A DNA stretch of 34,867 bases. Origin: a virus (lineage: Duplodnaviria > Heunggongvirae > Uroviricota > Caudoviricetes). Location of the stretch: the IMG/VR virus record IMGVR_UViG_2684622580_000006, one strand, 5' to 3'. The translations under genes and the position numbers were made by a program. This document shows positions 7,833-15,923 of this stretch, piece after piece (position 1 is the first letter of the stretch; the number at the start of each line of letters is the position of its first letter). The notes beneath the pieces were generated by a model. The model was not told the origin of the DNA. It worked only from the letters and a program-made list of their open reading frames with translations, and did not search any database.

Positions 7833-8372
7833 ATGGCTCGTAAAACTTATGTAAGCATGACTGAAATGGCTAAACGTTATGGTTATAGCCTCAACGCTAT
7901 CAAGAGCTGGCGTGCAGAAGGACTGCCCTACTCTGATAATCCTTCTGGTATTCCAGAAGACGAAGGCACTTTATGGATTGTTCAGAACAAAATTAACCCA
8001 ATGCGAAATATGTCCATCAAGGACGAATTCGAACGAGAAAAACTCCGTGAACAGGTGGCTAAAGCTGACTTGGCAACTTATGCAGCACAAGAAAAATCTG
8101 GTGAATTAATACCAGTGGATTATGTTCAAGCTGAGTTGAACCGTTTTTGTTCGCAACTGAAAGACAAAATCAGATTAATTCCGAAACAACACGCTTTGGA
8201 GATTCTTGAATCTGCCGTTTCAGTTGAAGAACTTCGTGATTGTCTGAAAGAGAAAATCGACCAGACGTTACGTGAGGTTGACAGTTTGTTTGAAGAACCT
8301 CAGTTACAGGACAATTCCTCAGACGAGTACAAAGAAAAGACAGAGAATGATACTGAGATTGACCTTGATTAA
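7833..8372 (+). CDS. Terminase small subunit, lambda Nu1-like
   Basis: Preferred start is ATG 7833 with ggaga SD (the track ORF 7683 is an upstream extension). The N-terminal wHTH VSMTEMAKRYGYSLNAIKSWRAEGLPY parallels Nu1 VNKKQLADIFGASIRTIQNWQEQGMPV. EREKLREQV and a helical C-terminal part follow. Confidence 0.7.
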   Translation: MARKTYVSMTEMAKRYGYSLNAIKSWRAEGLPYSDNPSGIPEDEGTLWIVQNKINPMRNMSIKDEFEREKLREQVAKADLATYAAQEKSGELIPVDYVQAELNRFCSQLKDKIRLIPKQHALEILESAVSVEELRDCLKEKIDQTLREVDSLFEEPQLQDNSSDEYKEKTENDTEIDLD

Positions 8373-8389
8373 GGGAGCATCGCTCCCTT
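8371..8389. terminator. Bidirectional hairpin aaGGGAGC-atc-GCTCCCtt
   Basis: Perfect 8-bp stem between convergent terS (stop 8370-8372) and the minus-strand ORF (stop 8388-8390). Confidence 0.6.
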
Positions 8390-8600
8390 ATCGCACAGCA
8401 CTTTTGAAGATCTGTTTCAGACGGTTGATAGAGACACGATCTGGTGAAAGATGTCGGATTTGTATACCACAATATTTCATTACATCATGATTACAAAGGA
8501 TTTGATGGCAGTTGTAATGCGATTCAACGCGATGCATCACCGTGTCCGTTCTTTTCAAAGAGCATTTGCAGTTTGCACACTGATGGTCAAATTTTGTCAT
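8388..8600 (-). CDS. Small Cys/His-rich protein (70 aa), possible zinc-binding / HNH-like
   Basis: Start moved to M26 of the track ORF, where gaggaag SD precedes the ATG at 8600. Sequence MTKFDHQCANCKCSL...HRVESHYNCHQILCNHDVMKYC. HNH assignment uncertain. Confidence 0.4.
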   Translation of the reverse strand: MTKFDHQCANCKCSLKRTDTVMHRVESHYNCHQILCNHDVMKYCGIQIRHLSPDRVSINRLKQIFKSAVR

Positions 8601-8690
8601 AGATACTTCCTCTAAAACTGTATTTATACACTGTGCACAGTGATGATATATTACTATGCATGAACTTGATTTCATGCTTTATAAGTTTTA

Positions 8691-8719
8691 TTGAGTCTCA
8701 CAAAATGATAGATTATCCT
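8691..8719 (+). promoter_or_regulatory. Candidate sigma70 promoter TTGAGT-17-TATCCT for the 8769 gene
   Basis: Hexamers read by eye in the divergent intergenic region; weak match. Confidence 0.25.
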
Positions 8720-8768
8720 ATGTGAATACAAACAGTTATAACCGACAGATTAATGGGTTGAGGACGTA

Positions 8769-13285: not shown

Positions 13286-13432
13286 TCTCTTCTCTAGCAA
13301 CTTGTTCGCTGAATCTTCGCTGAAGATGATTGATTGAACGTCACAGTCGGTTTTCAGTCTTAATGCTGCATCATCAACCGACATACGTTCGTTTTGTACA
13401 TCACCATTTTTGTAAATAACTTTAACAATCAT
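13253..13432 (-). CDS. Hypothetical small protein (59 aa, below the ORF-track cutoff)
   Basis: Hand translation: MIVKVIYKNGDVQNERMSVDDAALRLKTDCDVQSIIFSEDSANKLLEKRLEQLLVHGFK. Strong SD taaggag 6 nt upstream, terminator directly downstream. Confidence 0.55.
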   Translation of the reverse strand: MIVKVIYKNGDVQNERMSVDDAALRLKTDCDVQSIIFSEDSANKLLEKRLEQLLVHGFK

Positions 13433-13501
13433 GCTTGCTCCTTAGCATTGTTTGAAACATGATGATTTCACATTTCAACTTATATCTCAATCTACATACA
13501 G

Positions 13502-13527
13502 AAAATGGGAGCATTAGCTCCCATTTT
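13502..13527. terminator. Hairpin aaaatGGGAGC-atta-GCTCCCatttt (bidirectional)
   Basis: 11-bp perfect stem immediately after the stop (13528-13530) of the minus-strand HTH gene. Confidence 0.65.
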
Positions 13528-13929
13528 TCATTGTGAACCTCCATTTGTTTTATTGGTACAGCGTAAAAACTGATCGCGTATATACGCTTTTGATTTACCT
13601 GTCATTCGCTTACCGAATTCAATGAAATCTCCTTTCGTCTGACGATAAACAATCAAACTGATTTCAGAAGGTTTTTTGTGAGCACTATTTGATGCTAGCT
13701 GTTTTTCAATGTTCGGGATTTCTGATTCTTTAACTTCACCAGCTTCAATTTCAGAAGCAATAACTTCCTCTTCAACTGGCTTCACAGTGTATTTTTCAAT
13801 ATTTGCTTTAACGCGACGAACAACAGAGCGGGAAACTTCAAATTGTTCAGCAATCTTACGTTCTGATAAATCTGTTCCTGCGTTAATCATTGCAGCTATT
13901 TTATTTTCGATAGTCGGTTCAGTTTTCAA
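13528..13929 (-). CDS. HTH DNA-binding protein, 133 aa
   Basis: The N-terminus IAAMINAGTDLSERKIAEQFEVSRSVVRRV is a resolvase/terminase-small-type HTH, followed by an acidic linker. Divergent from terL. Confidence 0.5.
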   Translation of the reverse strand: MKTEPTIENKIAAMINAGTDLSERKIAEQFEVSRSVVRRVKANIEKYTVKPVEEEVIASEIEAGEVKESEIPNIEKQLASNSAHKKPSEISLIVYRQTKGDFIEFGKRMTGKSKAYIRDQFLRCTNKTNGGSQ

Positions 13930-14039
13930 TTCGATGTTCTCCGTGTTGAGATGGATTGAACTTTAACAATCCAGGTCCGAGGTGCAAGCGTCCTGAAAAT
14001 TATTTGTTGGATTCTTCATAAATACACTCAGAGGTGACT

Positions 14040-15923
14040 ATGAAAAGTATCAACAAATTAAAGAAAATCATTAAAGCATCAAAAATTTTTATCATGCCTC
14101 CTGCTGATTACACGCCGTCAGAATGGGTCGAACAGAACTTAATCTTCCCTGATGGACCATATGCGGATCAGCCAATGCGACTTTTTGAGTTCCAGCGCGG
14201 AATGATTGACGCTATCAAAGGCAATAAGAAGAAAATCGTTCTTATGACTTCTGCACAGATCGGCAAAACGACGATTCTGAACGGTGTTCTGTTCTATAAA
14301 TCAGCTATAGATCCAGGCAACGCGGGTGTTTTACAGTCTACAGCGAAAGAAACGACACAATGGTTATCAGGTAAAATTAAACCGATGATTGATGCATCGG
14401 AAGAAATGCAGAAAATCGTTACTGATAAAAACGACAGAAATGCAGTTAATAACACCAGTCAGATTCAGCTACGAAATGGTGGTTTCTGGTATTTCATGAG
14501 TTTGAACTCTCCTTCTCACTTGCGTGGTAAAACTCTGCCATTGCTTCTGCTTGATGAAGTTGATGCTGTCGATACTGATACAGAAGAAGGCAACCCAATA
14601 ATGATTGCCGAACAGCGTGCAACAACTTTCGGTTCAGACGCTCGAATCTTTATCAGTTCGACGCCTACTGGCAAATACGGTGCCATCAATACTCAATACG
14701 AAGCATCCGATAGACGTAAATTCCATATCGATTGTCCTCATTGTGGTCGTTCTCATGAACTCGTTTGGGAAAACATTAAATTCGATTGGATTAAACATGA
14801 TGGTAAATCAGTACCAGATCCAGAAACTGCGCGTCTTGAATGTCCTTCTTGTAATGAAGCAATCTCAGAAGCACAACGAGCAAGAGCATTAGCAAACGGT
14901 AATTGGATTGTGACTAATCCAGAAGCTGATACAGCAGGATTCCATGTAAGTCGTTTATACAGTCCTATGAGTTCAATAAAATCTGTCGTTCAAGATTTCA
15001 AAAATGCTTATCAAACATTCAGTTTGTCAACGTTCTATAACACCGTATTAGGTCTGCCTTTTGATGATCTGAACGAGGATGTGGAAATCAGTAAATTAAA
15101 CGAACTGAAAACTGATATCAGTATCAGAAATATTCCAGAAGATTGTCTTTTCTTAACTGCGGGTGTTGACCAACAGCAAGACCGTTTAGAAGTAACCTTG
15201 ATGGGTCACAACGAACGAACCGTTTATATTCTTGCACATCGTAGCTTTATGACAATGAACGCTGAGGTTATCGATTCCCCTGCTTATAAAGAACTTCTTG
15301 CATACGTTAAAGCACCGTTCAGAACAGCTTTGGGAAGAAAGGTTCCTTTAGCGTGGGTGAACGTCGATAGCTCAAACGGTCGAGCAACTAAAACAATCTA
15401 TCGTTTCTGCTCTCAGTGGACAAACCTGAAAGCAATTAAAGGTGCCAGCTCAGTTGATGCCCCTTATGTTCCAACGAAAATCACGAAAACCGGTGGTTAT
15501 GAACTTTATATGATTGGTGTAAACCAAGGAAAAAACTTAGTTCGTGAACTGCTAAACAGAAGCGTGAAATCTGGAAATACACCAGTCAGAGTCGAAATCT
15601 CTGATGATGTTCCAGATGATTACTGCGAACAGCTTATGTCCGAAGAATTAAAACGCTCTGGCAATACTGTTAGATGGGTTATTAAACAAGGCGGTGTTCG
15701 TAACGAAGGTCTTGACTGCTTTAACTACGGTTATTGTGCGCGTCTGCAAGTTCTAGAGAAAATCAAATTTCACGAGTGGAGGAAACTCGCTGCTAAATCT
15801 GATATTGAAATGCCAGAAGAACAAAACGAAACAAATTCTCCTGTTATTCAAACTCCTGAACCACGTCGAAACATTATCAAACGAAACAGACCAGTTAATA
15901 AGCCTCGTGGTTTCGGATTATAA
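14040..15923 (+). CDS. Terminase large subunit, lambda GpA family
   Basis: Collinear blocks with lambda gpA: Walker A SAQIGKTT, LLLLDEVD, FHIDCPHCGRSHE zinc motif, GFHVSRLYSP, LTAGVDQQQDRLEVTLMG, RNEGLDCFNYGY. ATG 14040 with agaggtg SD (track start GTG 14034). Confidence 0.95.
   Translation: MKSINKLKKIIKASKIFIMPPADYTPSEWVEQNLIFPDGPYADQPMRLFEFQRGMIDAIKGNKKKIVLMTSAQIGKTTILNGVLFYKSAIDPGNAGVLQSTAKETTQWLSGKIKPMIDASEEMQKIVTDKNDRNAVNNTSQIQLRNGGFWYFMSLNSPSHLRGKTLPLLLLDEVDAVDTDTEEGNPIMIAEQRATTFGSDARIFISSTPTGKYGAINTQYEASDRRKFHIDCPHCGRSHELVWENIKFDWIKHDGKSVPDPETARLECPSCNEAISEAQRARALANGNWIVTNPEADTAGFHVSRLYSPMSSIKSVVQDFKNAYQTFSLSTFYNTVLGLPFDDLNEDVEISKLNELKTDISIRNIPEDCLFLTAGVDQQQDRLEVTLMGHNERTVYILAHRSFMTMNAEVIDSPAYKELLAYVKAPFRTALGRKVPLAWVNVDSSNGRATKTIYRFCSQWTNLKAIKGASSVDAPYVPTKITKTGGYELYMIGVNQGKNLVRELLNRSVKSGNTPVRVEISDDVPDDYCEQLMSEELKRSGNTVRWVIKQGGVRNEGLDCFNYGYCARLQVLEKIKFHEWRKLAAKSDIEMPEEQNETNSPVIQTPEPRRNIIKRNRPVNKPRGFGL

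Follow-up and report, generated by a model that had tools for sequence, protein, structure and literature searches.

We have analyzed a stretch of viral DNA of 34,867 nucleotides (IMG/VR record IMGVR_UViG_2684622580_000006, Caudoviricetes), here called the window, which is a 34-kb temperate prophage of Escherichia coli that was integrated by a large serine recombinase. The subject of this analysis is the interval between terS and terL, the genes for terminase's two subunits, the small and the large one. The two genes are 5,667 bp apart in the window, and they are likewise separated in every relative found to hold both. It is probable, in our judgement, that this split is ancestral and that the interval is made up of a conserved, control-like backbone and a set of exchangeable cargo slots. 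A preliminary description of the sequence had reported a gap of about 5.7 kb inside a lambda-like head module. Both observations are borne out: the positions and the genes agree with that description, and the module has a GpA-type terL, a head-tail joining gene and a lambda-B-type portal. The positions of the features discussed are collected in Table 1.

The separation of terS and terL

Relatives of the prophage were retrieved from IMG/VR (terL and an alignment of terS served as queries), from a protein index and from the complete E. coli genomes of the RefSeq collection. At least 14 of them are distinct, and they comprise E. coli, Enterobacter, Citrobacter and Kluyvera-type elements as well as metagenomic contigs. 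In every relative holding both genes, terS and terL are 4.4 to 6.7 kb apart, and this extends down to 53% identity in terS and 72% in terL; an adjacent pair occurs in none of the at least 14 distinct relatives. The gap measures 4.4 kb in L032, 4.7 kb in L012/36 and in L035, 4.8 kb in L037, 4.9 kb in L007, 5.0 kb in L052, 5.6 kb in L005/9/23, 6.0 kb in L003/4 and in L044-46, 6.1 kb in L010/24 and in L051, and 6.7 kb in L054. All genomic copies for which the left end was retrieved have the same ABC-F gene as neighbour and the same type of recombinase. In the phage GenBank collection the interval found no DNA match and terS no tblastn match, and the best match to terL was that of phage DCP80, at 52% identity. 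Scans of genome contigs with terL and with the terS alignment confirmed no relative.

Since every relative with both genes has a gap of this size, the split is not a local insertion. The separation appears instead to be an ancestral trait of the genome plan of this lineage, as judged from sequence comparison, and not a local accident. The proposal that the interval is a derived island within a formerly adjacent terS/terL pair is thereby contradicted. Comparison of synteny, which had been suggested as a check, gave a divided answer, in that the two genes are adjacent nowhere while the content of the interval does vary at defined slots.

The terL assignment is supported by matches to GpA_ATPase (1.4e-61) and GpA_nuclease (4.9e-47), both far over the curated cutoffs, and to phrog_15 (1e-144). 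There would be no real split if the gene at 7833 were not a functional terS, the true one being an unrecognised small gene nearer to terL or elsewhere. The gene does lack a match in Pfam and NCBIfam, including PF07471 (Nu1), and in a search of PDB sequences nothing was significant. Its similarity to lambda Nu1 is also confined to the helix-turn-helix (HTH), where hhalign aligned 29 columns at a probability of 20% using an approximate Nu1 query. However, the gene matches the terS profile phrog_57 over its full length (E 4e-20, profile positions 10-193 of 199) and a second terS family, phrog_141, at 3.5e-5. Every relative conserves it, and in each one the most conserved of the non-coding elements lies immediately upstream. 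Moreover, no (+)-strand gene stands directly upstream of terL in the window, and in the distant clade that place is taken by an HNH_3 endonuclease. We therefore regard a misidentified terS as highly improbable, and the earlier assignment of this gene to the small subunit holds.

Backbone and cargo slots of the interval

The interval contains ten genes, at least ten having been noted before, and they form five orientation blocks and not four. About half of its length is backbone, whose elements keep their order across the relatives of the near clade, according to family clustering and tblastn maps. This backbone consists of a leftward operon of HTH54, the orf202 family and an FmdB zinc ribbon, then about 0.85 kb of non-coding DNA, and finally HTH133, which is divergent from terL. 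A purely accessory island with no conserved gene order is thus not what the near clade displays. Had all relatives carried the same intervening genes in a conserved order, there would be no hotspot at all; the outcome is mixed, with part of the order conserved in all relatives and part forming a variable hotspot. What persists in the distant clade is the zinc ribbon together with an orf202-like gene. HTH54, with which the leftward operon begins, has a weak match to the resolvase/invertase HTH family phrog_125 (E 0.003), and its position is conserved in the near-clade relatives. Members of the orf202 family were found in prophages of E. coli, Citrobacter, Enterobacter and Kluyvera.

The orf202 and zinc-ribbon sequences form a single fused protein in P0075, P0081 and P0083 (PF09723) and are neighbouring genes in L010, L024 and L051. 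In the window orf202 ends about 100 residues before the fused forms, which run on into a linker and the zinc ribbon. Alignment of the zinc-ribbon proteins showed that cargo-free relatives retain the motif MP.Y.Y.C..CG..FE...CP.C...AP.GI..GYY. In the window, in L003 and in the retron-bearing L005, the second CxxC knuckle and the GYY motif have been lost with the frame still open. The window protein keeps the first CxxC, lacks AP.GI..GYY and so does not show the two CxxC pairs of PF09723. Its orthologous position and its C-terminal NR.KQ.FK.A.R nevertheless identify it as a decayed FmdB member. Degeneration of this kind is seen only in cargo-bearing lineages, and the open reading frame (ORF) is 83% identical to that of L003, between flanking genes that are 94-98% identical. 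The gene had previously been listed as a Cys/His-rich protein. It is present, but given the lost motif, the 83% identity and the shortened orf202 it is better described as the decaying downstream half of a split pair. Insertion at slot B, the junction between these two genes, parted the zinc ribbon from its orf202 partner, and the zinc ribbon has decayed since.

HTH133 matches the Pfam GntR family at 3.6e-6, exactly at the 27-bit cutoff. It is present in all near-clade relatives, where its identity is 55-60% as against 80-91% for terL. The 104-bp spacer between HTH133 and terL contains the repeat GGATTG-N8-CAATCC. High divergence of a divergently transcribed HTH gene relative to its neighbours is typical of immunity repressors, and for the structural operon HTH133 is a candidate repressor. 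The search for control genes covered the prophage from ybiT to ldtB (window 1785-34867 plus L022 1-1300), in which neither a cI/Cro-type pair nor any replication initiator, helicase, primase or polymerase could be recognised. Outside the interval no recognisable DNA-binding, repressor, antirepressor or replication domain was found, the integrase excepted. As the regulator-like genes of the interval are the only ones recognised in the prophage, the backbone is probably the phage's own control region.

The non-coding part of the backbone (11429-12283) is 68-83% identical to that of near-clade relatives, a level similar to that of the flanking genes. It lies within an ORF-poor segment of 998 bp, reported earlier as 0.93 kb. 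Both strands fold better than shuffled sequences, with z-scores of -4.3 and -3.0. Rfam gave nothing at the gathering threshold on the whole window and one chance-level match in the interval at E <= 1. The window has nine copies of GCGAAGC, five of which fall within this non-coding DNA, and the mini-hairpins show compensatory changes, for example from GGCGAAGCC to CGCGAAGCG in L024 and to GACGCGAAGCGTC in L007. The tandem CGCATCGAT repeats are exchanged for other tandem repeats in L007, L010 and L024. A protein that binds these repeats was sought among the backbone genes, but the repeat type does not track the identity of HTH54, orf202 or HTH133, and consequently no binding protein is assignable. 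This DNA is a candidate cis-acting hub that would serve the leftward operon as leader or attenuator. It may also be where replication starts, or the control hub, in a minimalist temperate phage without replication proteins of its own. An identical 16-nt sequence, TTCAAACTTTAAGGAA, is found at two places 928 bp apart (11476-11504 and 12404-12432), in both cases with ATG after it. The second copy provides the endonuclease gene with its ribosome-binding site and start, and the first is conserved even in relatives without an endonuclease. Two exact copies are only marginally more than chance would give, as 6 of 100 shuffles reach two matches.

Around the backbone there are at least four variable positions, namely slots A, B and C and an endonuclease slot. 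Slot A, the space from terS to the zinc ribbon, is occupied by a 106-aa gene in L010/L024; its occupant in L037 is a 242-aa gene that has an Rx4H string. Slot B contains a three-gene cassette in the window, in L003/4, in the Enterobacter relatives L044-46 and in L054. The same slot holds a 589-aa retron reverse transcriptase-Toprim protein (RT-Toprim) in L005, L009 and L023 (E. coli MS 115-1), and it is empty in L007, L010, L024, L047-49 and L051. The retron protein matches the PADLOC model RT-Toprim_I-C at 7e-216 and carries the PGAP name "retron Ec67 family"; comparison of the retron-bearing L005 interval with Rfam yielded no retron RNA family. Slot C lies between the same-stem hairpins at 13232 and 13507. 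It holds orf59 in the window and in L005, L009, L010 and L024 (64-67% identity), and this gene is absent from L003, L004 and L007, which have other genes there; elsewhere the slot contains a YadA-anchor protein, an LprI-domain protein or small ORFs. In L052 a 222-aa ORF (5931-6599) lies inside the otherwise ORF-poor segment, which adds at least one more insertion point.

The same core flanks accordingly enclose the trio, the retron or nothing at a single site. Through the type I-C retron, a recognised defence system is among the alternative cargo, the window's own cargo having no PADLOC match. The idea of a cargo hotspot between terS and terL can therefore be kept for the slots, where the content does vary and the retron is one allele. 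It does not extend to the backbone, which is conserved.

Hairpins were found at the block junctions (8373, 10609-10651, 11459-11476, 13232 and 13507), in agreement with the earlier statement that each block is bounded by them. The stem GGGAGC-N3-4-GCTCCC has three copies in the 34.9-kb window, all of them in the interval (8373, 13232, 13507), and none was obtained in 100 shuffles. A generic terminator scan was weakly enriched (8 found, 3.7 +/- 2.3 expected). The 8373 stem is found, with other loops, directly after terS in L003, L007, L010, L024 and L044. Breakpoints of similarity to the relatives coincide with the same-stem hairpins, at 13219/13232 (L005), at 13507/13523 (L003) and at 8373. 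This coincidence suggests, but does not prove, that recombination takes place at conserved junction sequences.

The cassette in slot B of the window has the lowest GC of its region (0.29-0.36 over 8501-11000, compared with about 0.38-0.41 in the structural genes). Its first gene has no match in Pfam, PHROG, NCBIfam, PADLOC or PDB and is present only in trio-bearing relatives. Its sole similarity to the second gene is at an H..V....Y.DL motif (E 0.73), and at this level of motif resemblance it may be a transglutaminase/papain-like Cys-His-Asp protein. The second gene has 152 representative homologues. Among 35 aligned sequences C28 and H84 are invariant and D95 is nearly so, with a consensus WDGHCWVE and the canonical Cys-His-Asp order. 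Of these 35 family members three match Transglut_core (best 5.8e-4), one Transglut_core3 (4.4e-5) and four DUF2026, the window protein itself being below threshold. The second gene is thus predicted to encode a remote member of the transglutaminase-like superfamily. In the third gene R67-N68-Y69-x-x-H72 is invariant in 22 homologues, in accordance with the HEPN Rx4-6H motif. None of the three proteins gave a significant match to PDB sequences. The cassette had been named a trio of two transglutaminase-like proteins and a HEPN protein; the triad of the second gene and the Rx4H motif of the third agree with this, and the first gene lacks profile or structural support. That this low-GC cassette is an undescribed anti-phage defence system is a tentative suggestion that we would rate as possible but doubtful. 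It is a guess from location, based on the fact that the slot filled by the cassette is that of the type I-C retron of E. coli MS 115-1.

The endonuclease slot contains the gene that was first described as an intact GIY-YIG homing endonuclease. Its membership in homing-endonuclease families is supported by NUMOD3 (PF07460, 1.6e-9, scoring 38 where the cutoff is 20.4) and, for the N-terminal part, by phrog_314 (5e-18) and the PADLOC HEase model (7e-8). The GIY-YIG label finds no match to PF01541 at E <= 0.01 and no match among PDB sequences, although a VY..YYG..R..E..N pattern is readable by eye. The cassette is a presence/absence polymorphism, with about 150 bp replacing 12284-13218 in L005, L006, L009 and L023 and similarity to L005 resuming at 13219. 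In the distant clade an HNH_3 endonuclease is found directly upstream of terL instead. Additional NUMOD3 endonuclease-like genes lie beside the integrase in L048 (6588-7439) and upstream of terS in L052 (8930-9445). Taken together, the NUMOD3 indel, the HNH_3 gene by terL and the further NUMOD3 genes indicate that endonucleases actively colonise phages of this family.

On such grounds the preliminary description proposed that terS and terL were once adjacent, as Nu1 and A are in lambda, and that repeated endonuclease-driven insertions built a purely accessory 5.7-kb island. The polymorphic endonuclease within the interval and the HNH_3 and NUMOD3 genes of the relatives accord with such a history. 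It is contradicted by the lack of any relative with adjacent terminase genes and by the conserved order of about half of the interval. The supposed endonuclease remnants were not found either: when the window endonuclease and three HNH_3 proteins were compared by tblastn with the whole interval, its ORF-poor segment included, no match had E below 0.3. Slot B is more than 1.8 kb from the endonuclease gene, across the backbone operon and the non-coding DNA. Neither the retron nor the trio has an associated endonuclease, and nothing links the endonuclease to the cargo. We consider this history very unlikely. The homing endonuclease would be one more mobile passenger and not the engine of the other insertions.

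Under the reading that we favour, of an ancestral split with a backbone and slots, the backbone would be the control module of the phage and possibly its replication origin too, a role that is proposed because the remainder of the prophage has nothing of regulatory or replicative appearance. The cargo cassettes would be accessory genes expressed by the prophage (defence, surface proteins) and insulated by bidirectional hairpin terminators, and relatives would swap them by recombination at the conserved junctions. A number of points weigh against this reading. The role of the backbone is reached by exclusion, and this step holds most of the uncertainty; about eight small unannotated ORFs elsewhere in the prophage might include regulators. 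There are no informative homologues of orf202, HTH54 or the zinc ribbon, the AlphaFold2 (AF2) model of the orf202-zinc-ribbon fusion is poor (pLDDT 57), and the promoter scan was not above chance (20 found, 22.5 expected). In L032, L035, L036 and L037, all of the distant clade, only a recognisable zinc ribbon and a weak orf202-like gene (13-19% aligned identity) are seen. HTH133 was undetected in these four, and the search there for a counterpart of HTH54 took in ORFs of 60 aa or more. As to the cargo, PADLOC matches none of the three cassette proteins, and the HEPN-like gene occurs alone elsewhere. Finally, the copies hit by insertion sequence (IS) elements that are described below might mean that the family is not a fully autonomous phage.

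The prophage around the interval

The window begins in E. coli chromosomal DNA: positions 153-1745 (-) belong to ybiT, which has a GC of 0.52-0.56. Complete genomes show that the prophage is about 34 kb long with a GC of about 0.38 and ends before ldtB, so that the integration site is ybiT/ldtB. The recombinase gene is followed by a 245-aa gene, which some relatives carry and others lack or have replaced (L044, L048), and which is probably further cargo. Next come two tail genes (-), a lysozyme, a YuaX-like gene paired with a TIR gene, terS, the interval and terL. After terL there are the head-tail joining gene, the lambda-B-type portal, a protease-capsid fusion and tail genes, with the tape measure protein last. 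The tail genes are scattered: the tape measure gene is at the far right, and those for Dit and DUF2163 are on the other strand at the left end. Among the tail genes there is also a gene for endonuclease VII (29770-30246).

Alignment of 12 relatives showed that 7655-7745, upstream of terS, is the sole non-coding block conserved in both the near and the distant clade. In lambda, cosN-cosB is upstream of Nu1, an analogous position, and by this analogy the element is a candidate cos or packaging-recognition site. With cos probably upstream of terS, terS would be the first gene packaged. A location of cos within the ORF-poor segment was also considered and is less likely, the block conserved in both clades being upstream of terS instead. 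The YuaX-like/TIR pair occupies a second cargo slot, just upstream of this putative packaging site. At the same place there is a 152-aa gene in the Enterobacter relative L044 and a 116-aa and a 130-aa gene in L047. In E. coli PSS-15 the TIR gene is broken by IS2.

Several carriers have damaged copies of the prophage. IS3-family elements break the protease-capsid gene in several E. coli strains (L015-L018, at about 15.4-17.7 kb; L021, 31992-33220) and the terL gene of E. coli MS 115-1 (L023, 10460-11580), which implies that many copies are decaying or being inactivated. In the carrier E. coli L3Cip3 (CP062211), by its sequence, the protease-capsid gene is unbroken. The family is also rare, with 7 of 5,426 complete E. 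coli genomes containing it. The segment 4224-5929, which comprises the DUF2163 tail gene, the Dit-like distal-tail gene and the lysozyme gene, is inverted with respect to the integrase and terS in L026, L027, L029 and L044 and collinear in L048; no convincing inverted repeat was found to flank it.

One might conclude that the element is defective, domesticated or helper-dependent and that the interval is a patchwork of decay and rearrangement. Such a view draws on the IS insertions and the rarity of the family, on the lack of recognisable replication genes, on the scattered tail genes and on the 1.7-kb tail/lysis segment that is inverted between relatives. In the window copy, however, all structural genes are intact. 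The backbone genes remain open and have kept their order. Four genera share the architecture, down to 53% identity in terS, which implies selection, and the assembly collection has 212 blocks listed for the exact terL protein of the window, which suggests recent spread. A defective element of this sort is therefore, in our view, unlikely.

Table 1. Positions of features in the window, from left to right
Feature	Position	Strand	Remarks
Large serine recombinase	1785-3290		left end of prophage
245-aa gene	3449-4186		function unknown; phrog_30303, E 3e-61; adjoins integrase
YuaX-like 95-aa gene and TIR-domain protein	6310-7493		PADLOC candidate system PDC-S35, E 1e-70; between lysozyme and cos-like element
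Conserved non-coding element	7655-7745		90-180 bp upstream of terS; invariant GAGATGTTTCG; imperfect inverted repeat TTCTGAAACA/TGTTTCGAA
terS, small terminase subunit	7833-8372	+	N-terminal HTH, coiled coil, acidic tail; PHROG
Hairpin GGGAGCATCGCTCCC	8373-8387		convergent terS/zinc-ribbon junction; left edge of slot A
Degenerate FmdB-type zinc-ribbon ORF	8388-8600	-	70 aa; open frame extends to 8675
Cargo gene 1	8769-9245	+	158 aa
Cargo gene 2	9342-9848	+	168 aa
Cargo gene 3	9845/9863-10567	+	234-240 aa; HEPN-like
Long AT-rich hairpin TTGTTGATTCGCTATTA / TAATAGCAATCAACAA	10609-10651		convergent cargo gene 3/orf202 junction; right edge of slot B; read from sequence
orf202	10656-11264	-	beta-rich N-domain and coiled coil
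HTH54	11264-11428	-	small HTH protein; first gene of leftward operon
ORF-poor segment	11429-12426		998 bp
Conserved structured non-coding DNA	11429-12283		about 0.85 kb
Leader hairpin	11459-11476	-	terminator-like; about 30 nt upstream of HTH54 start
Tandem CGCATCGAT repeats	11671-11713
GCG(A/T)AGC mini-hairpins, left half	11834, 11845, 11870	+
GCG(A/T)AGC mini-hairpins, right half	11965, 12104, 12289	-
GATC-rich, AT-rich core	~11900-12010		enclosed by perfect 10-nt inverted repeat
Endonuclease cassette	12284-13218	+	upstream region, NUMOD3 gene and most of lipoprotein gene
NUMOD3 homing-endonuclease gene	12427-13041	+	Pfam, PHROG, PADLOC
Small lipoprotein gene	13034-13285	+	lipobox VVGGC read from translation
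Hairpin AAAAGGGAGCATCAGCTCCCTTTT	13232-13247		bidirectional, terminator-like; lipoprotein/orf59 junction; left edge of slot C
orf59	13253-13432	-	small gene, function unknown; slot C
Hairpin AAAATGGGAGCATTAGCTCCCATTTT	13507-13522		just downstream of HTH133 stop; right edge of slot C
HTH133	13528-13929	-	GntR-like winged HTH; divergent from terL
terL, large terminase, GpA type	14034 (GTG) or 14040 (ATG) to 15923	+	Pfam, PHROG

Comparison with known systems

These results suggest that non-adjacent terminase genes can be a stable, lineage-wide plan and need not reflect an annotation error or a recent insertion, which is relevant to prophage annotation and to tools that place terS by its proximity to terL. 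A slot that holds either a retron or an uncharacterised transglutaminase-like/HEPN-like cassette makes the latter a guilt-by-location candidate for a new defence system. Cargo entry here broke a pair of backbone genes, fused into a single protein in some relatives, and its zinc-ribbon half has decayed. A family with no recognisable replication genes and one regulator-like module could also serve as a compact model for the minimal needs of a temperate phage.

The head region resembles the Nu1-A-W-B-C order of lambda in its GpA-type terL, its lambda-B-type portal, the joining gene after terL and the N-terminal HTH of terS, and the conserved non-coding element 90-180 bp upstream of terS is placed like the lambda cos. 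Unlike in lambda, terS and terL are 4.4-6.7 kb apart, terS has no Nu1 Pfam match, and the protease and capsid are fused. The endonuclease resembles the free-standing homing endonucleases of phages (GIY-YIG/NUMOD3 Seg-like and HNH_3 types) in being an intergenic ORF with NUMOD3 repeats that is present or absent and has a small passenger gene; it differs from the free-standing GIY-YIG enzymes in that its catalytic domain lacks Pfam or PDB sequence support.

Terminase genes are usually but not always neighbours. In the Pseudomonas phage E217 they are 58 kb apart, and in the Burkholderia phage CSP3 there are 15 ORFs between terS and terL, mostly hypothetical genes in a region that varies among relatives (PMC9611059, PMC10269572). 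The present family shares with both phages the non-adjacent terminase genes, and with CSP3 the variable intervening region. It belongs, however, to an unrelated lineage with another host, and its interval combines a regulator-like backbone with defined slots, one allele of which is an identified defence system.

Prophage hotspots for defence genes include those of P2 and P4. For the retrons Ec67 and Ec86, the passage of PMC6868368 that cites Dodd and Egan (1996) gives a position between cos and the packaging-gene terminator in 186-related prophages, and retron Eco2 is presented in PMC12916289 as an experimentally studied anti-phage system. The idea that our prophage is the 34-kb element of retron Ec67 was dropped, as Ec67 sits in a 186-related prophage (PMC6868368) and only the RT family is shared. 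Like the 186-type retron sites, slot B has conserved flanks and alternative cargo at one site, with an Ec67-family type I-C RT-Toprim retron among its alleles. Unlike them, it is found in a prophage with lambda-like head genes and a serine integrase, it is placed inside a backbone gene pair and not in a cos-proximal spacer, and the cargo of the window is unrecognised. The hotspot is of a type known from prophages; what this case adds is the defined backbone, the set of at least four slots and the allelic pair of a retron and an unknown cassette.

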